DNA of 64,000 nucleotides from an uncultured Bacillota bacterium (GTDB taxonomy: Bacteria > Sysuimicrobiota > Sysuimicrobiia > Sysuimicrobiales > Segetimicrobiaceae). Position 1 is the first letter of the stretch, and each line of letters begins with the position of its first letter. The DNA is taken from contig CAWDRG010000017.1 of the NCBI GenBank assembly GCA_963804645.1, positions 736,001-800,000 of the forward strand, written 5' to 3'. The notes under the pieces are model-generated. The model worked only from the letters and a program-made list of their open reading frames with translations, ran no database searches and was not told the origin of the DNA. A program made the translations under genes and the position numbers. This document shows positions 34,970 to 45,521 of this stretch, one piece after another.

Positions 34970-36268
34970 TTACTGCCGTACCTGGGTGCGCAGCACCTCG
35001 AGCGCCCGTGATAGGTAGGGCGCCGCTTGAGACGGACGCCTGCACTTGAGCAGGAGGTCGCCGAGCGCATTGGATGCGCGGGCGAGGTCCGCGCGCATGT
35101 GAAGGGCTTCAAACGAGCCGATGGCCACCTTGTACCAGCGAATCGCCTCTGAAGTCTGCCCGCTGGCGTCCCGAAGGCCCGCACGAGCCAGCTCTATCCT
35201 GGCGAGCTCGGTCACGTCCCCGAACCGTTTGGCAAGCCGCTCCGCCTCGTCCAGCGCCTCGTCCGCCTGGTTGAATATGCCTTTAAGAGTCAGCGCACGC
35301 CCCAACTCGGTCAACGTGCGGGCGCGTCCGGGATCGTCGCCGATCTGTTCCTTAATCCGAAGGCTCGCCTCAATATGCTCAATCGCGCCGTCCACCTTCC
35401 CCGCGGCGAGCAGCGTGATTCCGATGCTGTTGTGAGCCCATCCGAGGAACCGCGTATCGTTCAGCGCTTCGAAGAGGTGTTGGGCCCTCGTCAGGTGCTC
35501 AAGCGCCGCGTCGAAGTCACCGCGCTCACGCCGGGCGACGCCCAGTTGGACGTGGACGAGTCCCACGCGATGGAGATCCTCTGCGGACTCCAGCAGGGGC
35601 AGGGCTTGTTGATACCAATGGATTGCGTCCGCATAATCCCCGAGCTCCAGATACGTGTTTCCCAGATTGTACAGCAGCGCCCCGCCGAGGCTGCGGTCGG
35701 GATGGTCGCACAACTGGAAGCGGCGATAGCCTTCGGCGAAGTGTTCGCGTGCCTTCGAGAGATCACGTTTGTAATATTCGATCAGCCCGAGAACGTGATG
35801 CACGCGCACGAGGTGGCGTTCGGTCCCCAGGGCTTCCGCGATCTCCCTGCCGAGTTCGACGTTGTGGCGGGCGAGATCGTATTGTCGCAGACCGGCCAGT
35901 GCGTAGGCCAAGCCGACATAACACTCCGCCTGACTGGCCTTATCCTGCTGCCCGATCGCCAAGGTGAGCGCTTCATTGAACGCCTCGGCGGCTCCGGTGT
36001 AATCGCCCGGCTTCGCCTTGGCCCAGGCCGCCGCAACGTTGACCTGCAACACCTTCGCACTCAACGTCGCGTCGTCATCCAAAATGTACGCGGGCGACAC
36101 CTGCAGGCGCCGCGCGATGAGGACCAAGGTCGCAGGTGACGGCCTGGCGCGCCCAGCTTCGAGTAAACTGACGAATCCTTTGGTCAGATCGCTACCGCCG
36201 AGCTCGGTCTGCGTGAGACCGAGCTCTTTCCGTCTTGCCCGAATGCGTTCACCCAGTGAAGACACCAC
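34970..36268 (-). CDS. XRE-HTH + TPR transcriptional regulator (RRNPP-like architecture), paralog 1
   Basis: LGERIRARRKELGLTQTELGG..FVSLLEAGRARPS HTH followed by multiple TPR repeats (LLYNLGNTY, WAHNSIG); GGGGGA RBS. Confidence 0.88.
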   Translation of the reverse strand: MVSSLGERIRARRKELGLTQTELGGSDLTKGFVSLLEAGRARPSPATLVLIARRLQVSPAYILDDDATLSAKVLQVNVAAAWAKAKPGDYTGAAEAFNEALTLAIGQQDKASQAECYVGLAYALAGLRQYDLARHNVELGREIAEALGTERHLVRVHHVLGLIEYYKRDLSKAREHFAEGYRRFQLCDHPDRSLGGALLYNLGNTYLELGDYADAIHWYQQALPLLESAEDLHRVGLVHVQLGVARRERGDFDAALEHLTRAQHLFEALNDTRFLGWAHNSIGITLLAAGKVDGAIEHIEASLRIKEQIGDDPGRARTLTELGRALTLKGIFNQADEALDEAERLAKRFGDVTELARIELARAGLRDASGQTSEAIRWYKVAIGSFEALHMRADLARASNALGDLLLKCRRPSQAAPYLSRALEVLRTQVRQ

Positions 36269-36496
36269 AGGTCCCCCGATGCGAAACCTACGAGACGCCG
36301 ATGCGCCTCTCGGCGATCCCTTGCCCTGCTTTTTGCAAAGTTTAGTGTATCACCTAGTCTAGATTCCTGCTACTAGAACAGCTCAAGCCATCTCAAGCCA
36401 ACCCGAGCCCGTCGACGCAATGGAACCCCTGCAAGGACCCAGATCGAGCCCTTGCCTCCGATGAGACCCGGATTCAGTTAGAAGCTTCGCGGCTCG

Positions 36497-37009
36497 CTAA
36501 GCGCCGCCGTTGTCGTCGCCCGCGGGAACCAGCGGCGGCATGCCGTAGACGCTGCTCCCGCCGTTGTCGTCGCCTGCGGGAACCAGCGGCGGCACGCCGT
36601 AGACGCTGCTCCCGCCGTTGTCGTCGCCCGCGGGAACCAGCGGCGGCACGCCGTAGATGCTGCTCCCGCCGTTGTCGTCGCCCGCGGGAACCAGCGGCGG
36701 CACGCCGTAGATGCTGCTCCCGCCGTTGTCGTCGCCCGCAGGAACCAGCGGCGGCACGCCGTAGACGCTGCTCCCGCCGTTGTCGTCGCCCGCAGGAACC
36801 AGCGGCGGCACGCCGTAGACGCTGCTCCCGCCGTTGTCGTCGCCCGCAGGAACCAGCGGCGGCACGCCGTAGACGCTGCTCCCGCCGTTGTCGTCGCCCG
36901 CAGGAACCAACTGTGCGGCGCCCGCCGGAAGACTTGCTGCAAACAGATGAACACCAGACGTGCTGAGAACAAGCGCCCCTACCGCGACAAACATCCATAT
37001 GCGACGCAT
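36497..37009 (-). CDS. Secreted tandem-repeat peptide precursor (signal peptide + 8x LVPAGDDNGG)
   Basis: AGGGGGTG RBS before ATG 37009; MRRIWMFVAVGALVLSTSGVHLFA signal-like N-terminus; 18-aa repeats LVPAGDDNGGSS[V/I]YG[V/M]PP. Confidence 0.82.
   Translation of the reverse strand: MRRIWMFVAVGALVLSTSGVHLFAASLPAGAAQLVPAGDDNGGSSVYGVPPLVPAGDDNGGSSVYGVPPLVPAGDDNGGSSVYGVPPLVPAGDDNGGSSIYGVPPLVPAGDDNGGSSIYGVPPLVPAGDDNGGSSVYGVPPLVPAGDDNGGSSVYGMPPLVPAGDDNGGA
36503..36910. repeat. 54-bp tandem repeat, 7 full units + 30-bp partial unit
   Basis: Unit containing GCCGTAGA[C/T]GCTGCTCCCGCCGTTGTCGTCGCC recurs every 54 bp with no spacers. Confidence 0.97.
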
Positions 37010-37279
37010 AGTACTACACCCCCTATTTTGATTTCTCGAGCACTCGAGTACCAAGCCAGGAAACTTCATGCGAGATCTGATTTCGCGGACTCGAAGCTTT
37101 CACGGACACAAATCTTGATCGCGCCCCACACGAGAAATGGCGTGCTATGGCGCCAAGGTTGCAGTCAATACGTGGCGTACGGTATCGAACAACCGAACGC
37201 CATATGTCCTTATGTACCTATGTACCTCCCTCGCCGAAATTAGACGTCCCCCGTCTAACTAACTGCCCACTGCCCCAGG

Positions 37280-37524
37280 GACTTAGCCGACGCCCGAGGA
37301 GAAGGGCTGCCGTGTGGCTGAAGTTTTATCAACTGCGCCGCACCTTCGCACGTCAACTAATGGAGGTCGGGCCCCCCCATCGCCACCGTACAGCGCCTCT
37401 TTGGCCATGGCAACCTGCAGAGCATCTAGTGGTATCGGTCCCTGCCAGAGCAATCATCCGCCGCAGCTACGATACGGCGGTAACGCGGTTGCTGGGCACG
37501 ACGACCACGGACCCTGACGCGTGA
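37280..37524 (+). pseudogene. Decayed tyrosine recombinase (XerC/D/integrase) C-terminal remnant
   Basis: With a frameshift in the C7 run near 37375 it reads RRRAAVWLKFYQLRRTFARQLMEVG.PIATVQRLFGHGNLQSI*WY...IRRSYDTA, matching box II (HxLRHxFA..LLGH..TxxY). Confidence 0.7.
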
Positions 37525-38064
37525 GCGCAGTCGCCGTACACCGACCCGCGAGGCCAGGCGACGCGCCAAACACCAATCGGGTAAGCGTGCTACGCGTAGC
37601 GCTGGCCGAGGACTGATATTTAGTTGACAAACGTCAAGAATTGGTGCCGTCTGCGCGCCCTGCACAAAAAGAGACTTAGAAACGGTCCGGCTTGGCCAAC
37701 AGCCCCCCATTGCAGAAAGTTGAGTAGAGCGGTAGACTTGTGAAACAGGTAAACTTGTGGGGGGGAGCCCGCAACTCGTCCTGTAACCTCTGCGGCATTA
37801 GTACGGCCACTAGCGACTTGAAGTGACTAAATCATCGGCAAGGGGGGGACACGGAGGGCACTCAAAACTTCATATCGGGCGGGATCCGAGCGGTACCGGG
37901 CTCGGCGGCATTCCAAGCCGCAACGCCTTTCGCGGACGCCGACGTGCAGTCGACGCGGGAGGCCGAAGACGATGGCTGACGTCCATAACCGTAGCACTGC
38001 CCGACTCAGATCTAGCGCGCACAAACCAACGTAGCCGAGGACACGGTCAGCGGCGCTTACACTG

Positions 38065-39438
38065 GTGAACGGCAAGTGCGCATGTGCCAAGCAATCGCGG
38101 ACTGCCGGGATGCGTGTAGTAACATGGCAGGCGACGGCGGCAATAGTGATAGGAAGCTATCAACTACCGCTCGGATTCCCGCTCGCCCATGACCAGATGC
38201 GAGTACATTTTCGTGAGCTTCAGGATTCTTTGCAGGCGTTCTGCGTTGTCCTCTGCGCGTTCGCGCTGGCGGCGTCATTTTTGCCCTGCCTCACAGTCAC
38301 CCGCTGATTGTCATCGGACTGGCGGTTATCTTCGCCGCCACATGCCTCGTTAGACCGATACCGAATCCCTCTGGCGGGAGCATTTTTCCGACCAACAGCG
38401 TGAAAATCGTGGCCGCGCTCCTCTGGATGCCGCAGGACGTACTGATCGGTGTCGCATGTGGGGTCGTTTCTTGGGTTGCTCCTCTTCCAAGGAGCGAGAT
38501 CTGGCGAGCGGCGAGTCAATGGTGCTGGATGGGGACTGGCCTCTGCGTCAGCGGCGCTCACGGCCCACCTCGTGCAGGGCGCGATCGAGCCCAGGCCTGG
38601 TGCAATTGACCGCGGCAGCCGTTGCGGCGGTGGTAACGAATCGCGTCATCAACGAAGGGATTTTCTCGATCTACAGATCCTTGCGATTTGGCTTTCCTAT
38701 TTCTGCCGACTTGGCGCCAAAACGTGCTCGACCAGTGGATGAGTCAGCTTCTTGCCGCGCCGATGGGGATCGTACTGGCGGCAGCGGCCGGTCGACTCGC
38801 AGCCACGTGGTCCTCCCTGGCGCTAACGGCCGTGTCCGCGCTGGCGTTACCTGATTCCACGCCAGGAGCTGGCCTATTACCATCGTGCCCAGGAAGCCGT
38901 GGCCGAAGTCGTCGAGGCGGTCGTCCGCGCACTGGAAGGGATCGATCAGAATACGCGGGCGCACGGTGACCGGGTCAGCCAGCTCGCGGGGGCGGTCGGA
39001 CAGCGTCTGCGGATGCCGGAGGCGGACCTCCGGGCCCTTCGCTTGGCGGCGCGTCTGCACGACGTCGGCTTCCTGGCGGGACCCGACGGGTCGGCGCCCA
39101 ACGACCACCACGCGGTCGCCGGCAGCCGGATCCTCGCCCAGTCGCCGGATCCGCTGATCGCAAGAATCGTACGGGCTCATCACGAACGGTGGGACGGCAC
39201 CGGAGTCCCGGACCGAACCGCCGGGCAGGCGATCCCTCTCGGTGCACGGGTCATCGCAGCAGTGGAAATCTACGATGAGGTCTGCTTCGGGATCGGCGAG
39301 GGCGGCAGCACCATGCCGCCCACCGACGCGCTCGGGCGCGTCCGCGGACTGGCCGGCACCGCGCTCGATCCGCAGGTCGTCAGCGCGCTCATCAGCGTCG
39401 TCGAGGAACAGGAACTCCAGGCCGCGGTGACGCGGTGA
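38065..39438 (+). pseudogene. Membrane-anchored HD-GYP-type protein broken by multiple frameshifts (HD domain intact at 38899-39438)
   Basis: Hydrophobic segments continue across successive frames into IPRQELAYYHRAQEAVAEVVE..HGDRV..LHDVG..HHERWDGTGVP; 5' boundary uncertain. Confidence 0.65.
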
Positions 39439-42041
39439 GCTTGAACGGGGCCGGGATGCGCGCGTCAGCCTCCGCGCTCCCGTTGTTCGTTTGGTTCCTC
39501 GTCGCGGCCGCACTCGGCTCCCTCATCGCGGGGCTGCGCGCGATGGTGGTCGGGCAGATCCCTGAAACACTCGTGATCGCGATTACCATCGCGATCCTCG
39601 ATCTGTATCCGATCTACCTCGATCCCACGGGTGAAATCCCGCTGACCCCCGTCATCACCGTGGGGGCGGTGGTGCTGTTTGGGTGGGCGCCGACGATCGT
39701 CGGCGCCGCTGTCGGCACGCTCTTCGGGCTGTTCAGGCACCCCGCGCGGGAGGTCGTGGTCAACGGCAGCATCCGGCTCGGCGCGCTCATCGCTGCCGCC
39801 GGTCTCGCCAGCGTCGCGCCCGCGATGGGTTCGAACCGCGATGTGAGCGCGGTGATCGCGGTGCTCTATGCCGGCGCCGGGTACTGGGCGGCGTCTGTGT
39901 TCCTGTCCGCGGCCCGCCTGTGTACCGAAGACGCGGTCACGTGGCAGCGTGCCGTCAGATTCCAGCTGGCGGCCACGACGTTCCACCTGGCCGTGTTCAC
40001 CCTCGCGGCCGCCGTCGCGGTGTGGGTGATCAGCAACGATCCGTCGCGGATCGACCTCCTGCTCGTCCCTCCGCTCGCCGCCACGTTGGTGCTCCAGCTC
40101 TACCTGCCTCGAATTCTGCGCGGCGAACAACAGCGCCGCGCGCTCTCCTCGGTGTCGGTGCTCGCGGCCGCGGTCGACGCCAAAGACCCGTATACTGCCA
40201 ACCACTCGGCCGCGGTGGCCGAACTGTCCCGGCGCGTCGCGAGAGTGCTCGACCTCGACGAGCCCGACGTGCACCGCGTCTACCTCACCGGGCTGCTCCA
40301 CGACGTCGGCAAGACCGTCGTGCCGCCGGAGATTCTCCTGAAAACCGGAAAGCTGACGGAGGACGAATGGCAGGTAATGCGCTCGCACGTCGAGGCCGGC
40401 GTTCGGATCGTCCAGTCGATTGGCGGGCTGGCGGAGATCGCCCCATTCGTCGGGGCCAGCCACGAGCGCCTCGACGGGGCCGGCTACCCGGCGGGCCTGG
40501 CCGGCAACGCCATTCCCCTGAGCTCCCGCATCAATCTCGTGGTCGACGCGTACAACGCGCTGACGACGAACCGCCCCTACCGCCCGGCCCGTCCGCCTGA
40601 GGCGGCGCTCCGCGAGCTCGAAGCGCACACGGGAACGCAGTTCGACCCGCGGGTGGTCACGGCGATCCGCACCGCCCTCGGATTGAGCCGGGCGCTTCCT
40701 CCGCAGCGCGACGCGCCGGATCCGCGGGTGGTCGCGACGCTTCGTACCGCGCTCGGGCTCAAGCGCGCCCCCGAAACGCGCGAGGACGCACCAAACGCGT
40801 TGACGTTGTTCCGGCAGCCGGCATTCGCGCTCCTGTGGATCGGGCAACTCGTGAGCTTCCTCGGCGATGAAGTTTTCTTCATCGCCCTATCGCTCTGGGT
40901 CTACCGGCTCACCGGATCCGCGACGATCCTCGCGGTCGCGCTGATCGCCGCGACCGTGGGCCAAGGCCTGCTGGGACTGCTGGCCGGCGCGCTCGCGGAC
41001 CGGATGGACCGTCGCGGAGTCATGATCGCCGCTGACCTCGGGCGGGCGGTCCTCGTGGGCATGCTCCCCTTTGTCATTCTCCGGTCGCTGCCCCTAGGAT
41101 TCCTCGTCCTCGTGGTGTTGAGTGTCGGCACCGTGTTCTTTCGCGCCGCGGTCTACGGGTTGATCCCGTCGATCGTCACGCGAGCGCTCCTCCCGTCTGG
41201 CAATGCGCTGTTGCAGACGACCGAGCGCGTCGCCGAGATCGTCGGCGGGGTGTTGGGGGGGGTGATTGTGCTCACGCTCGGCTACGTCGCGGTGTTCTAT
41301 CTGGACGCCCTGAGCTTTCTCGTGAGCGCGGTGTGCATCGGCCTGATGCCGGTGGCATGGCGGGCGGGTCTCGCCGCGACCGGCCCCAAACACATCGCCA
41401 CGGACATTAAAGAAGGCCTCGACTACATCCGACACACGCCGCTGCACTGGGCGCTGGCACTCTTGATTATCCCAGGGTACCTCACGCTCGCGTTTACCGG
41501 TCTCAGAGCGCCGATGATCATCAAGGCGGCGGCGCTGCCGGCGGTCGCCTACGGCGTCGTCAACAGTGTGATCGGGGTCGGCAAGCTTGTGTCCGCGCTG
41601 TCGCTGGCCGCGATCCCGCGCGGCTGGAGCAACGTGTCGTTCGTGGTCGGATCGTTCCTCCTGACGGCGCTCGGGATCCTGCTGTTCGGCGCCACCACGT
41701 CGTACTCGGTGCTCCTCATGGGGGCGTTCCTGTTCGGCGCCGGAAATATCGCCTCGAACATCGCCAACGCGTCCATTTCCCTGTCCAACACGCCGTCCGG
41801 GATCGTGGGCCGACTGATGTCCAGCCGACAGGTCTTCATCGCCGGCACCACGCTGGTCGGCATGTTGATCTTCGGCAGGCTGGCCGACGTCGCCGGCCCG
41901 CCGTTCGCGCTCGTGATGCTGGGAGCCGTCTCGGCCGGGGGCGTGCTGATCGTGTGGTTCACCATCGGCCGCCGGGTCGCTCCGCCAACCTCTCAGGACG
42001 TGCCTCGCAGCGTCACCGTGCCGTCCCAGCGCAACGCATAG
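39435..42041 (+). CDS. Fusion: N-terminal multi-TM domain + HD-GYP phosphodiesterase + MFS transporter
   Basis: DAKDPYTANHS..LLHDVGK..HERLDGAGYP..GTQFDP; then FALLWIGQLVSFLGD..AGALADRMDRRGVMIAADLGR (MFS motif A) and further TM helices. Confidence 0.88.
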   Translation: MSLNGAGMRASASALPLFVWFLVAAALGSLIAGLRAMVVGQIPETLVIAITIAILDLYPIYLDPTGEIPLTPVITVGAVVLFGWAPTIVGAAVGTLFGLFRHPAREVVVNGSIRLGALIAAAGLASVAPAMGSNRDVSAVIAVLYAGAGYWAASVFLSAARLCTEDAVTWQRAVRFQLAATTFHLAVFTLAAAVAVWVISNDPSRIDLLLVPPLAATLVLQLYLPRILRGEQQRRALSSVSVLAAAVDAKDPYTANHSAAVAELSRRVARVLDLDEPDVHRVYLTGLLHDVGKTVVPPEILLKTGKLTEDEWQVMRSHVEAGVRIVQSIGGLAEIAPFVGASHERLDGAGYPAGLAGNAIPLSSRINLVVDAYNALTTNRPYRPARPPEAALRELEAHTGTQFDPRVVTAIRTALGLSRALPPQRDAPDPRVVATLRTALGLKRAPETREDAPNALTLFRQPAFALLWIGQLVSFLGDEVFFIALSLWVYRLTGSATILAVALIAATVGQGLLGLLAGALADRMDRRGVMIAADLGRAVLVGMLPFVILRSLPLGFLVLVVLSVGTVFFRAAVYGLIPSIVTRALLPSGNALLQTTERVAEIVGGVLGGVIVLTLGYVAVFYLDALSFLVSAVCIGLMPVAWRAGLAATGPKHIATDIKEGLDYIRHTPLHWALALLIIPGYLTLAFTGLRAPMIIKAAALPAVAYGVVNSVIGVGKLVSALSLAAIPRGWSNVSFVVGSFLLTALGILLFGATTSYSVLLMGAFLFGAGNIASNIANASISLSNTPSGIVGRLMSSRQVFIAGTTLVGMLIFGRLADVAGPPFALVMLGAVSAGGVLIVWFTIGRRVAPPTSQDVPRSVTVPSQRNA

Positions 42042-42237
42042 GGCCGCCGGGCGCGGAGTCGGCCGGCCCTGGCGTACGCGCCGCCTGCCTCAGAGGTCTA
42101 GAACCCCACCCCCCAGTGTACACACGGGATGGCCGGCACCAGCGCGCGCCGGCTCAGTTTAGGCACGTCGGAGCAGTGCACGGACCTGCCGGACGCCATA
42201 CGCAGCAGCCGCCACACCAGGATGGGGGAGACGTCAC

Positions 42238-43998
42238 ATGAGATCCGATCGAACGCTCGCCTGCATGCTCGTCGTCCTGCTCATTGTCCTCGTCGCGGGC
42301 GCCGCGGCCAGCGGGGCCGGAGCGCCCGTGAACAATCCGGGCACGTTCGTCACCGAGCGCCTGGCGGATCCGCAGAGCCTCGATCCCGCCTACGCGTACG
42401 ATACCGCGAGCGAAGAGATCATCTACCCCAACGTCTACGAGACCCTGATCGGGTACGACGGCAGCGTCCTGTCCCACTATGTGCCGGTGCTGGCTGCCCA
42501 AGTGCCGAGCGTGGGCAATCACCTGATCACGCCGGACGGGCTCACGTACACGTTCCCGATCCGCGCCGGGGTGCGGTTTCACGACGGGTCCGTGATGACT
42601 CCCGAGGACGTGCGCTATTCGATCTTGCGCTTCATGCTGCAGGACCGCGACGGCGGCCCGTCGTGGCTGCTGCTCACGCCCCTGCTCGGGACCGAGAGCA
42701 CGCGCGACGCCAAGGGCAACATCGCCGTGACGTACGCGCAGGCCGCCAAGGCCGTAACGGTCGAGGGGCACAACGTGGTCTTCCACCTCGCCCATCCGTA
42801 CGGCGCGTTTCTGAGCATCATGGCGGCGTGGTCGTTTGTCCTCCCGCGCGCGTGGGCCGCGGCGCACGGTGACTGGGACGGCAGCCCGGCGACGTGGCAG
42901 CGCTACAACAACCCGAAGCTCCAGGACCGCTACGCGTTCGACCATATGAACGGCACCGGGCCGTTCCTGCTGCAGCAGTGGGACCGGCAGGCCAAGCAGA
43001 TCATTCTGGTCCGGAACCCGCAGTACTGGCGCGCGCCGGCCCGGTTGTCGCAGGTCGTGATCCGCACCGTCCCCGAGTTTGGGACGCGCCGCCTCGAGCT
43101 CCAGCGCGGCGACGCCGACCTCATCGACGTCCTGCGCCCGGATCAGCCCCAGGTGGCGGGACTGGACGGCGTGACGATCCGTGACGGCCTTCCGCAGCTG
43201 GCGCTGCTGGCCCTCGACTTCAACCTGCAGATCGACCCCACCGCCAATCCCGATATCGGCAGCGGGAAGCTTGATGGGAACGGGATCCCGCCGGACTTCT
43301 TCAGCGACGTCCACGTCCGCCAGGCGTTCGCGTACGCGTTCGACTACGGGACGTTCATCCGGGACGGATACCGGGGGGACGCGGTCCAGCCGAACGGCCC
43401 CATCATCCAGGGCCTGCTCGGATACGATGCGTCGATGCCGCGGTACACGTTCGACCGGCAGAAGGCGATCGCGGAGTTCAAGGAGGCGTGGGGCGGGAAG
43501 CTGTGGGACGTAGGGTTCCGCTTCACCGAAACGTACAACACCGGCAATGTGATCCGTCAGGTCGCCGCGCAGATCCTCAAGGACGAGGTCGAGTCGCTCA
43601 ACCCGAAGTTCCGGATCGACATCCGCGATCTCGCTTGGTCGTCGTTCCTCCAGATGGTCGGCCAGCATCGGGGCACGCTGTACGGCATGGCCTGGACGGT
43701 CGACTATCCCGATCCCGACGACTTCGCACAGCCGTTCATGGCGAGCAACGGTTCCTACCCGAAGCGGGACGGCTTCAGCGATCCCGCCGCGGACCAGCTG
43801 GTCGCGGAGGCGGCGGCCATGTCCGATCCCGCCAAGCGCGCGGCGATCTACCAGCAGCTGTCCAAGCTCTCGTACACCGACGCGCCCAGCATCTACATCG
43901 CGCAGCCGACCGGGTTCGCGGTGATGCGGACGTGGGTCCGCGGATGGTACTACAACCCGGTGATCGTGCAGGACTACGGCCCGCTGTTCAAGCAGTAG
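42238..43998 (+). CDS. ABC transporter substrate-binding protein, family 5 (peptide-binding)
   Basis: Signal peptide; SLDPAYAYDTAS, YTFPIRAGVRFHDG, NGTGPF, WTVDYPDPDDF. Confidence 0.92.
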   Translation: MRSDRTLACMLVVLLIVLVAGAAASGAGAPVNNPGTFVTERLADPQSLDPAYAYDTASEEIIYPNVYETLIGYDGSVLSHYVPVLAAQVPSVGNHLITPDGLTYTFPIRAGVRFHDGSVMTPEDVRYSILRFMLQDRDGGPSWLLLTPLLGTESTRDAKGNIAVTYAQAAKAVTVEGHNVVFHLAHPYGAFLSIMAAWSFVLPRAWAAAHGDWDGSPATWQRYNNPKLQDRYAFDHMNGTGPFLLQQWDRQAKQIILVRNPQYWRAPARLSQVVIRTVPEFGTRRLELQRGDADLIDVLRPDQPQVAGLDGVTIRDGLPQLALLALDFNLQIDPTANPDIGSGKLDGNGIPPDFFSDVHVRQAFAYAFDYGTFIRDGYRGDAVQPNGPIIQGLLGYDASMPRYTFDRQKAIAEFKEAWGGKLWDVGFRFTETYNTGNVIRQVAAQILKDEVESLNPKFRIDIRDLAWSSFLQMVGQHRGTLYGMAWTVDYPDPDDFAQPFMASNGSYPKRDGFSDPAADQLVAEAAAMSDPAKRAAIYQQLSKLSYTDAPSIYIAQPTGFAVMRTWVRGWYYNPVIVQDYGPLFKQ

Positions 43999-44055: not shown

Positions 44056-45351
44056 CTAGCGGGGCGAGTCGGCGCGCAGCACCTCAAGCGCCCGCGAGAG
44101 ATACGGCGCGGCCTGCGACGCGCGGCCGTGTTTCAGGAGTAGATCGCCGAGCGCGTTGCACGCGTTCGCGACGTCCGCCTGCATCCCAAGCGCGGTGAAT
44201 CCGTCGATCGCCTGCTTGTAGCAGCGAATCGCCTCCGGCATCCGGCCGGTCGCCGCCCGGAGCTGGGCGCGGGCGGCCTGAATGCGGGCGCCCTCGGTGA
44301 CATCCTTGAACCGGTCGGTCAGCCGCTCGGCCTCGTCAAGCAGCGCATCCGCCGAGGCGAACTCGCCTTTTGCGATCATGGCGCGTCCCAATTCTGTGAG
44401 CGACCGTGCCCGCCCGGGGTCGTCGCCGGTCTCCGCCTTGATCCGGAGACTCGCCTCGATGTGCGCGATCGCGTCGTCGACCTTCCCCTCAGCCAAGAGC
44501 GTGATCCCGATGCTGTTGTGGGCCCATCCGAGCAGCCGCCGGTCTTCGAGCACCTCGAACACGTGCTCCGCCCGGTTCAGATGCGCCAGCGCCGCGTCGT
44601 AGTGCCCTCGCTCGCGCTCGGCCACTCCGAGCTGGACGTGCACCAGACCGAGCCGGTGCATGTCCCCGGTCGACTCCAGCAGGGCCATCGCCCGCTCGTA
44701 CCAGCGGGCGGCCTCCACGTGGTCGCCCATCTCCATGTGCGTGTTGCCGATGTTGTACAGTAGAATGCCGCCGAACCCGCGATCCGGGTGATCGAACTCT
44801 TCGAACCGGCGGTACGCCTCGGCAAAATGCCCGCGCGCCTCAAGCAGGCGGCGCTCCTGGTACGCGATCATGCCGAGCACGTGGTGGATGCGCACGAGGT
44901 GATGCGAGGCCCCGGCCGTCTCGGCAAGGTCCCGCCCGCGCTCCACGTTCCGACGGGCCAAGTCATGCTGCCGGAGACCCGCGAGCGCCGTCGCGAGCCC
45001 GATGCAGCATTCGGCCTCGAGGGCTGGATCGTCGTCCCCCGCGGCCAGCGCGAGCGCCTCGTTGAACGCCTCGGCGGCGCCGGTATAATCGCCCTGCTTG
45101 ACCTTGACCCAGCCCGCGGCCACGGTGACGCGAACCGCTTTGGCCCCGAGGGTCGTGCCTCGCTCCAGAAAATAGCCGACGGGCCTCTGCAGGCGGCCGG
45201 CGAGCACGCCCAGGGTGTCCAGCGACGGCTTCGCGCGGCCTTTTTCGATCAGGCTGATGAACGCTTTGCTGACGTCAGCGCCGCCGAGTTGGGTCTGAGT
45301 CAGGCCCAACTCCTTCCGTCGGGTCCGAATGCGTTCCCCCAAGGAAGACAA
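44056..45351 (-). CDS. XRE-HTH + TPR transcriptional regulator (RRNPP-like architecture), paralog 2
   Basis: Colinear with and clearly similar to 34970..36268 (SSLGERIR.RRKELGLTQ, GWAHNSIGITLLA, GDDPGRAR.LTELGRA, QAAPYLSRALEVLR); TTG start at 45351 with GGGGGA RBS. Confidence 0.88.
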   Translation of the reverse strand: MSSLGERIRTRRKELGLTQTQLGGADVSKAFISLIEKGRAKPSLDTLGVLAGRLQRPVGYFLERGTTLGAKAVRVTVAAGWVKVKQGDYTGAAEAFNEALALAAGDDDPALEAECCIGLATALAGLRQHDLARRNVERGRDLAETAGASHHLVRIHHVLGMIAYQERRLLEARGHFAEAYRRFEEFDHPDRGFGGILLYNIGNTHMEMGDHVEAARWYERAMALLESTGDMHRLGLVHVQLGVAERERGHYDAALAHLNRAEHVFEVLEDRRLLGWAHNSIGITLLAEGKVDDAIAHIEASLRIKAETGDDPGRARSLTELGRAMIAKGEFASADALLDEAERLTDRFKDVTEGARIQAARAQLRAATGRMPEAIRCYKQAIDGFTALGMQADVANACNALGDLLLKHGRASQAAPYLSRALEVLRADSPR

Positions 45352-45521
45352 CGTCGATCCCCCGGTCTCGCGTCGGTGCGCGCCCATCCACTACCGCGAA
45401 GCGCTCGGTACGGCTGGTATCTGATACTGGATCCCGGGTCTCGAACCCTTGTGCATTCGCAGCACCCGGCCAGCCCGGGGGCCGGCCGGCAGTCGGATCG
45501 GGATCGGGGCGGCGAGGCCGG

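Follow-up and report, generated by a model that had tools for sequence, protein, structure and literature searches.

In the 64,000-nucleotide stretch of DNA analysed here (positions 736,001 to 800,000 of contig CAWDRG010000017.1, hereafter the window; the genome that holds it is called G000), two adjacent genes on the minus strand probably form a peptide-signal and receptor cassette. It is built like the RRNPP(A) quorum-sensing systems, with a poly-pheromone precursor and an NprR-like receptor. The first gene, at 36497..37009 (-), codes for 170 amino acids and a stop codon, and its translation points to a putative exported, poly-pheromone-like precursor. The second, at 34970..36268 (-), codes for a predicted cytoplasmic receptor-regulator of 432 amino acids, with an XRE-type helix-turn-helix (HTH) domain at residues 9-62 followed by an all-helical tetratricopeptide repeat (TPR) superhelix at about residues 66-432. 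The regulator gene lies directly downstream of the propeptide gene on the same strand, after a gap of 228 bp (36269..36496, -).

The propeptide gene starts with the ATG at 37009 and runs for 170 codons to the TAG stop at 36499-36497 on the minus strand. A Shine-Dalgarno-like GGGGGTG run is located 7 nt upstream of this ATG. A longer start at ATG 37069 has no counterpart in the sequence of the closest relative. Residues 1-33 (36911..37009, -) form a signal-peptide-like N-terminus and a short pro-region, with an MRR start, a 13-residue hydrophobic stretch and A-G-A/A-x-A sites, as judged from inspection and a hydrophobicity heuristic. The same layout, a charged n-region, a hydrophobic core and A-x-A, is found in all homologues. 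It is followed by seven units of 54 bp (18 amino acids) at 36533..36910 (-), LVPAGDDNGG-SS[V/I]YG[V/M]PP, which read through as LVPAGDDNGGSS[V/I]YG[V/M]PP, and by an eighth, truncated unit, LVPAGDDNGGA, at 36500..36532 (-), immediately before the stop codon.

An earlier note on this DNA, made from the letters alone, had described this open reading frame (ORF) with its signal peptide, seven full units and truncated end, and the translation and Tandem Repeats Finder confirm the frame and the repeat. The latter reports a period of 54, 7.5 copies, 98% matches, 0 indels and a score of 756, and a table of the units gives the same picture; the repeat is far above chance expectation. The copy number of eight comes from one assembly, and the contigs of an independent DNA run break within the repeat. 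The GC content at third codon positions (GC3) is 0.78, like that of the adjacent genes. The protein matches no Pfam or NCBIfam family, and its sequence contains no anchor, lipobox, cysteine or sorting signal.

Within the array of G000 the residue variation is limited to the SS[V/I]YG[V/M]PP part and LVPAGDDNGG is invariant, as the earlier note had stated: an isoleucine is present in units 4 and 5, and a methionine in unit 7. At the nucleotide level, the 30-nt core part has four variable sites across the array, all four synonymous, and the 24-nt spacer part (SSVYGVPP) has two, both non-synonymous. The exact probability of this two-by-two table is 0.067, and the contrast in selection pattern between core and spacer within the gene is therefore merely suggestive.

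To find relatives, the precursor was searched against 61 genomes of the same order (G-numbers denote related genomes, P-numbers metagenome proteins and L-numbers loci). Clear matches were obtained in all six other genomes of the genus and in two other genera of the family. A homologue of the regulator is present in nine out of nine fetched precursor loci of relatives, with 31-91% identity; according to the coordinates it is directly downstream of the precursor, on the same strand and about 210-270 bp away. The tie between precursor and HTH+TPR regulator is found throughout these loci. It had also been said that homologues which are surface proteins unlinked to TPR regulators would speak against a signal; this was looked at, and the homologues are linked to TPR regulators. 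Eight weaker precursor matches (E > ~0.012; L019-L026) were checked and have no regulator beside them; four of these were scanned for ORFs and lack the motif, and the weak matches were taken as chance. A protein search against 1.84 billion representatives returned 47 matches, most of which resemble unrelated low-complexity repeat proteins. Ten of these sequences were read: P0003, P0004 and P0033 are clear members of the family, and P0038 is a possible fragment.

The number of units varies from 1 to ~13 within the genus. The precursor of G000, with eight cores and a core plus A at its end, has its closest homologue in G004, where the unit is LVPAGDDNGG ST[V][Y/F]GVPP, the end is again a core plus A, and ~13 cores are counted if two apparent frameshifts are read through. 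These cores extend over three reading frames (L029:7452-8233), and the frameshifts are either an assembly error in the repeat or the mark of a decaying gene. A second group ends in LVPQ and six other residues: G003 (LVPQGDDNG[P/S] GAVYGLPP, five copies), G006 (LVPQGDDNGP GAVYGVPP, three copies), G001 (LLPQDGDDNGP GAVYGLPP, three copies), G002 (LVPQGDDNGP GAVLGVPP, two copies), the first cassette of G005 (LVPQGDDNGP GAVLGIPP, one copy) and the metagenome protein P0001 (LVPQGDDNGG ASVYGVPP, three copies). The others end in a core: the metagenome proteins P0003 (LVPQGDDNGS MSTYGLPP, three cores) and P0033 (IVPFGGDGSGS DIQSTPP, three cores), G009 (LVPF(D)GQDGSGQ with a longer spacer, four copies) and the second cassette of G005 (LVPFDGQDGSGQ AVGTLP, three copies). 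The two cassettes of G005 have different cores, and their receptors are 31% identical to each other.

More distant relatives were collected with a regulator-alignment scan of GTDB species genomes, which gave 308 relatives, of which 80 were kept. Upstream of distant regulators (25-61% identity) we find single-copy ORFs of 41-59 amino acids with signal-peptide-like N-termini. They end in acidic, glycine-rich motifs of the same class as the core: ..LVPAGDDHGGSG, ..LVAAGDDNPAGG, ..LEPAGDDNDGSH, ..VADGDMGDGL, ..VAGGDPPDGG, ..VADDGGSGAGG and ..IADGDMGGGL. The C-terminal ends of the single-copy propeptides read ..ILVPAGDDHGGSG, ..HLVAAGDDNPAGG, ..LEPAGDDNDGSH, ..MRVADGDMGDGL, ..MQVAGGDPPDGG, ..QIVADDGGSGAGG and ..VQIADGDMGGGL. 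Since the single-copy genes carry the motif at the C-terminus, the ancestor seems to have been a short propeptide of the usual kind, with an acidic, glycine-rich peptide at its C-terminus, and the multi-copy genes seem to have arisen by expansion of this end. At one distant locus a similar ORF of 64 amino acids is found downstream of the regulator instead of upstream. At four other loci (L059, L060, L062, L063) a conserved exported protein of ~155-163 amino acids is found upstream of distant regulators, in place of the short propeptide.

These short relatives bear on what the gene product is. The repeat protein could itself be a component of the periplasm or envelope, for example a flexible, acidic, possibly Ca2+-binding linker or coat component rich in Asp, Gly and Pro, with a regulator that merely controls the gene and does not sense its product. 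The host is probably diderm, so that the protein would end in the periplasm; conservation across species extends to both halves of the unit, the repeat number varies as in many surface proteins, and many close regulators have no peptide gene. However, relatives that have one unit or a single core measure only 41-81 amino acids, of which 15-50 residues follow the signal peptide, too short for a structural protein, and they still keep both the pairing with the regulator and the C-terminal motif. The protein also lacks any anchor, lipobox, cysteine, sorting signal or known domain, and the other matches among the 1.84 billion representatives were judged to be unrelated low-complexity proteins from the ten sequences read. 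We consider an envelope protein unlikely. That the ORF is spurious or decaying, a tandem DNA repeat which is open by accident, is hardly credible: the apparent frameshifts in G004 and the almost complete lack of RNA evidence for the repeat would fit it, but the frame, the N-terminus, the Shine-Dalgarno-like run and the placement of the stop are kept in seven species of the genus and also outside it, GC3 resembles that of the neighbours, and the changes in the core are all synonymous.

Where in the unit the signal lies can be approached from the same comparison. We place the active part in the core, the LVPxGDDNGG piece, which appears to be functionally important, because the motif of the single-copy propeptides is C-terminal, the truncated last units stop after the core, and P-x-G-D-D-N-G is invariant across the species of the genus. 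The last unit stops just after the core in five other precursors, those of G004 and G009, the second cassette of G005, P0003 and P0033. This agrees with the earlier note, which had singled out the LVPAGDDNGG piece as the important one. It had added that the core is the sole part kept in the last unit, which is true of G000 and these five but not of six relatives (G001, G002, G003, G005, G006 and P0001), where the precursor ends in LVPQ followed by six unrelated, species-specific residues. These tails equal the core in length and resemble the non-identical terminal "pseudo-repeats" of Phr propeptides (PMC11343458). Release of a mature (A)GDDNGG after V-P-A, as the earlier note also suggested, is a guess.

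The spacer does not vary freely. It probably carries processing information or belongs to the product. In the single-copy peptide of G011, ..VPP immediately precedes LEPAGDDNDG; because of this and of the conservation of the spacer between species, the spacer end together with LVP resembles an element for processing or recognition more than mere filler.

The fold of the regulator is compatible with a peptide-pheromone receptor. Pfam assigns HTH_3 to residues 9-62, and TPR_12 (4.9e-31) and TPR_MalT (2.5e-24) also match. An AlphaFold2 model based on an alignment of 30 sequences has a mean pLDDT (predicted local distance difference test) of 92.7 and consists of the HTH followed by a continuous superhelix of 18 paired helices. 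When the model was compared with known structures by VIA-align, the top nine rows were Rap and NprR receptors. The best is RapJ-PhrC (4gyo; Z 33.2, root mean square deviation 3.8, 348 aligned residues), and the others include Rap phi3T with pheromones (8rsv and 8rst, Z 32.9), RapF-PhrF (4i9c, Z 32.1), Rap phi105 (Z 30.3), RapI (Z 30.0) and apo NprR (5dbk; Z 29.6, 352 aligned, 13% identity). NprR-NprX (4gpk) has a Z of 27.8. The Rap alignments begin at model residue 66-74, and the sequence identity over them is 12-14%.

A sequence-profile search of the PDB gave generic TPR matches and one Rap at 6.6e-10; NprR was absent among the best 60 of 177 matches. In NCBIfam solely sub-threshold generic TPR or HTH rows were found. 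Among distant relatives of the regulator the HTH is 43-58% identical, versus 11-37% for the TPR part. A complex prediction with regulator alignment A2 and precursor residues 134-170, run without controls, gave scores of 0.02, 0.43 and 0.02, which bear on binding in neither direction.

In the surroundings of the cassette the TPR regulator has no enzymatic company of the kind that makes modified peptides. Among 23 reading frames searched with Pfam between 22.8 and 52.3 kb, ~15 kb on each side, there is no radical SAM, YcaO, lanthipeptide or other maturase enzyme, no peptidase and no dedicated exporter, in line with the earlier note, which had seen no modifying enzyme for a ribosomally synthesised and post-translationally modified peptide (RiPP) nearby. 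Likewise, the ORFs tested beside the cassette in the loci of eight relatives include no maturase-type enzyme. This makes it very improbable that the gene is a multi-core RiPP precursor, whose units would be modified and excised by enzymes encoded elsewhere to give a natural product and not an unmodified signal. Multi-core precursors with conserved recognition sequences between the cores are known, both of the cyanobactin type and of the fungal KEX2 type, and the conserved spacer and the LVP flanks could be such sites. Apart from the missing maturase, protease and exporter, the core lacks Cys, aromatic residues and the Ser/Thr pattern that are typical of common modifications, a putative Sec-type signal peptide stands in place of a RiPP leader, and the only constant partner is the TPR regulator.

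If the two genes are read as a signalling cassette, the circuit would run as follows; we infer all steps after translation, that is export, cleavage, uptake, binding and regulatory output. The 170-residue product would be exported via Sec and its signal peptide removed. Extracytoplasmic proteases would then cut at the repeated junctions, yielding up to eight copies of a short, acidic, glycine-rich peptide containing GDDNGG per translation. The released peptide would accumulate and be re-imported by one of the many peptide ATP-binding cassette (ABC) importers, to bind the adjacent HTH-TPR regulator on the concave side of its TPR superhelix and switch its DNA binding. The regulator would probably control the propeptide gene itself and possibly the divergent genes for HD-domain proteins. 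Amplified in tandem, from 1 to ~13 copies in the genus, the 54-bp unit would give more signal per transcript.

The host lineage sets the frame for the export step. A 608-residue segment of RpoB is 88% identical to that of an ANGP1 metagenome-assembled genome, 79% to Fervidifonticultor and 79% to a genome of the same order. Two distant carriers of the cassette are Candidatus Fervidifonticultor, which is listed under Candidatus Sysuimicrobiota, and the window lineage is probably CSP1-3/Sysuimicrobiota. Sysuimicrobiota is the former CSP1-3 and comprises one class and one order (PMC11604079); PMC11962464 lists a surface-soil family "NP-7" and a GC content of 62-74% for the phylum. The contig of the window itself carries LpxC (285 bits; G000:C17:506836-507630) and an Omp85-family gene (110 bits; G000:C17:511043-511900), and the controls built into this search match only diderm genomes. 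Of the 31 genomes of the order, 29 carry LpxC (28 of 30 if the unpublished G034 is left out), as do all 22 high-quality ones. The host is most likely a diderm with lipopolysaccharide (LPS). The public labels of the relatives are Firmicutes, Bacillota, Armatimonadota and "Bacillati bacterium ANGP1", despite the LpxC in the order.

Because the host carries LpxC and Omp85, Sec export would lead to the periplasm, and the word "secreted" in the earlier note has to be qualified. Peptide uptake is not expected to be limiting, given the 133 matches to SBP_bac_5, the binding proteins of peptide/oligopeptide-type ABC importers, in the 5.3-Mb genome; one of them is in the window at 42163-43998 (+). Judged by these matches, the receptors for peptide uptake have undergone a very large expansion.

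With such an envelope the loop could also be private to each cell: the precursor would be cut in the periplasm and the peptide re-imported by the same cell, so that the regulator would report periplasmic protease activity or the state of the envelope and not density. This shares every step of the pheromone circuit except the escape through the outer membrane. The LPS and outer-membrane genes in this genome and in 29 of the 31 genomes of the order are in its favour, as are the very many peptide-binding importers and the five species in which the cassette lies before cell-wall genes (AMIN-domain amidase, polysaccharide deacetylase). However, this gene context is not kept in G000 and G004, and the core hexapeptide of ~530 Da could pass general porins, whose size limit would admit it. 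We regard a private loop as improbable. That the cassette forms a quorum-sensing circuit between cells, with a pheromone and a cytoplasmic receptor, in an LPS-diderm, non-Bacillota lineage such as CSP1-3/Sysuimicrobiota is a tentative proposal, which we hold with less than even confidence; it includes a porin-passing peptide of ~0.5-1 kDa and a copy number of 1 to ~13 tuned by repeat expansion.

Among the known systems, NprR-NprX of the Bacillus cereus group is similar in the receptor, which has an N-terminal XRE-type HTH and a long TPR superhelix in ~420-430 amino acids. It differs in that the identity to NprR is 13% over the structural alignment, with the TPR proteins LGN/Pins scoring as high. 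NprX is a single-copy propeptide, and its gene is downstream of nprR. Fungal multi-copy pheromone and multi-core RiPP precursors also contain many short peptide copies with conserved spacers in one translation product. They need dedicated processing or modifying enzymes and are not paired with a gene for a cytoplasmic TPR-HTH receptor. No such clustered enzymes were found by Pfam on the reading frames tested at our locus (22.8-52.3 kb), nor on the ORFs tested beside eight related cassettes. The fungal analogy drawn in the earlier note gives way to a closer bacterial one, the Phr propeptides with 1-4 pheromone repeats (PMC11343458).

RRNPPA propeptides are described there as 50-120 amino acids long and Sec-exported, with a gene immediately next to that of the receptor, on its upstream or downstream side, and a pheromone that is usually C-terminal; some Phr propeptides contain 1-4 pheromone repeats (PMC11343458). 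As in the Rap-Phr systems of phi3T and phi105 outlined in that text, a propeptide gene, here with a putative Sec-type signal, is located beside a cytoplasmic TPR receptor, several identical or near-identical putative pheromone copies with conserved cores and less conserved linkers are present in one propeptide, and in some relatives the final copy departs from the internal copies in the manner of the Phr "pseudo-repeats". Peptide-bound Rap proteins are also the best structural matches of the receptor. In contrast, Rap has no HTH and acts on proteins (response regulators); its N-terminal three-helix bundle is not found here, where residues 9-62 match HTH_3. Further differences from Rap-Phr are 1-4 repeats in 50-120 amino acids there (PMC11343458) versus 8 (~13 in G004) in 170 amino acids with an 18-residue period here, the position of the propeptide gene upstream of the receptor, the identity of 12-14% and a host other than a monoderm Bacillus. 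Rap-Phr systems thus already offer examples of pheromones repeated in tandem (1-4); the copy number, the length of 170 amino acids and the probable LPS-diderm host are new.

The signature used by RRNPP_detector is a propeptide of 10-100 amino acids with Sec secretion, adjacent to a receptor of 250-500 amino acids with TPRs, and the survey covered only complete Firmicutes genomes and viruses (PMC10075063). Our cassette agrees with this signature in its 432-residue receptor with TPRs of the peptide-binding type (by Pfam, the AlphaFold2 model and the structural alignments) and in the direct adjacency, which is kept in all nine loci of relatives. The propeptide has a Sec-like signal and is plausibly Sec-secreted. 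The propeptide exceeds the length limit and would be skipped by a strict search. The host, with LpxC and Omp85, is most likely not a monoderm Bacillota or a mobile element of one. By this comparison the cassette appears to function as RRNPP systems do, yet it should be kept apart from their ordinary members.

Several observations weigh against reading the two genes as a signal and its receptor. First, the propeptide has 170 amino acids against 10-100 in the signature, the excess being all repeat; precursors with 1-3 units or a single core have 41-120. Secondly, the spacer x-x-V-[YFL]-G-x-P-P is conserved across species, and the unit may therefore not be a simple design of core plus junk. Thirdly, Foldseek against the PDB ranks LGN/Pins TPR proteins first and Rap only from rank 32, and in VIA-align LGN/Pins TPR domains reach Z 28-29.6. 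These values come close to that of NprR, and the match in fold is therefore not by itself specific for a pheromone receptor. The peptide would also have to cross the outer membrane twice to act between cells.

The pairing itself is frequent but not obligatory, since 9 of the 19 assessable regulators with at least 49% identity have no propeptide gene upstream and 10 have one; the locus L051 was left out of the 19, as it has too little upstream sequence. The receptor family does not strictly need an adjacent peptide. Seven of the nine unpaired regulators (L042, L047-L050, L052, L053; 49-60% identity) adjoin tRNA-like sequence, at a distance of ~350-450 bp, as seen by six-frame translation. At one of these loci, L047, there is a possible propeptide remnant with GDDNQG and no signal peptide. 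Furthermore, the gene context of G000 and G004 differs from that of the other species, and for this reason no conserved target gene can be named. Finally, in RNA libraries the repeat is represented by one contig of 84 nt with 7 mismatches. In three peat metatranscriptome libraries contigs match the regulator gene (35147-36217) at 99-100%, where it should be kept in mind that DNA can occur in such libraries; the missing RNA-contig cover on the propeptide gene is not informative, as contigs break in repeats. Run shares below 0.2 in bioreactor, soil and sediment were not taken as evidence of habitat.

Signalling by imported pheromones and cytoplasmic TPR receptors counts as a characteristic trait of the Gram-positive Bacillota, together with their phages and plasmids. 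Only those hosts were covered by the large surveys, with a propeptide limit of 100 amino acids (PMC10075063). The cassette family described here resides in an abundant uncultured soil lineage with lipid A genes and an Omp85 protein, and a full-text literature search pairing "RRNPP" with "diderm" gave nothing beyond a plasmid review. If the proposed reading is true, RRNPP-type peptide communication is not confined to monoderms and reaches diderms, and signal dosage could evolve by tandem amplification. The genus would then provide a natural copy-number series for studying the effect of pheromone copy number, and the cassette a defined peptide/receptor pair for probing the behaviour of a phylum with no cultured member.

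Promoter and terminator scans were at chance level, and none of their hits in the 228-bp spacer is convincing on the minus strand. In 8 of 10 cassettes examined (L030-L034, L037, L046, L054) a conserved motif, CCGTTCGGC(G/A)G, is located 25-40 nt upstream of the propeptide start; it is often preceded by GTAAAG and TAAAGTGT-like boxes and may be an operator or 5'-untranslated-region element of the family. In the form CCGTTCGGCGG it is absent from G000 and G004. As an operator at the G000 locus it was dropped, the window having 10 one-mismatch matches versus 8.6 expected.

In the five species with LVPQ-type units (L030-L034) a phosphoesterase-like gene follows the cassette on the same strand (Pfam match in three of the five). 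Next come an AMIN-domain, AmiC-like N-acetylmuramoyl-L-alanine amidase, a divergent polysaccharide deacetylase and an M17 aminopeptidase. The genes downstream of these regulators are possible targets linked to cell-wall remodelling. In the window, the Pfam neighbours between 22.8 and 52.3 kb are a fumarase, PrpD-type and CoA-transferase genes, a helicase, two HD-domain proteins, a family-5 binding protein, a TRAM-domain protein and a 2-oxoacid:ferredoxin oxidoreductase.

The window also contains an orphan paralogue of the regulator at 44056..45387 (-), with 66-67% identity and no propeptide gene upstream. The same two paralogues are found in G004, and a tree groups the two orphans as sisters of the two paired regulators with a support of 99/96. 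The TRAM-domain gene ends 135 bp upstream of the orphan. The family-5 binding protein beside it was considered as a part of the system and rejected, as the corresponding place in G004 lacks it.

Between the propeptide gene and the divergent HD-domain genes lies a gene-poor stretch of 1.9 kb (37010..38898), which is unique in the genome and has a GC content of 0.57-0.65 versus ~0.70. It must hold the propeptide promoter; as a whole it could be an extended regulatory region, the remains of a gene or an RNA of unknown kind. Rfam gives no match in 36000-39200. The part at 37558-38898 is 78% identical to G004, with the six frames equally (un)conserved and none standing out. The stretch is followed by a gene for a small HD_5 (HD-GYP-like) protein at 38899-39438 (+) and by one for a fusion protein of 868 amino acids at 39435-42041 (+), which has an N-terminal membrane region, an HD_5 domain and a C-terminal transporter of the major facilitator superfamily. 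These HD_5 genes are divergent from the propeptide gene and are flanked by both paralogous regulators, and the same arrangement is found in G004.

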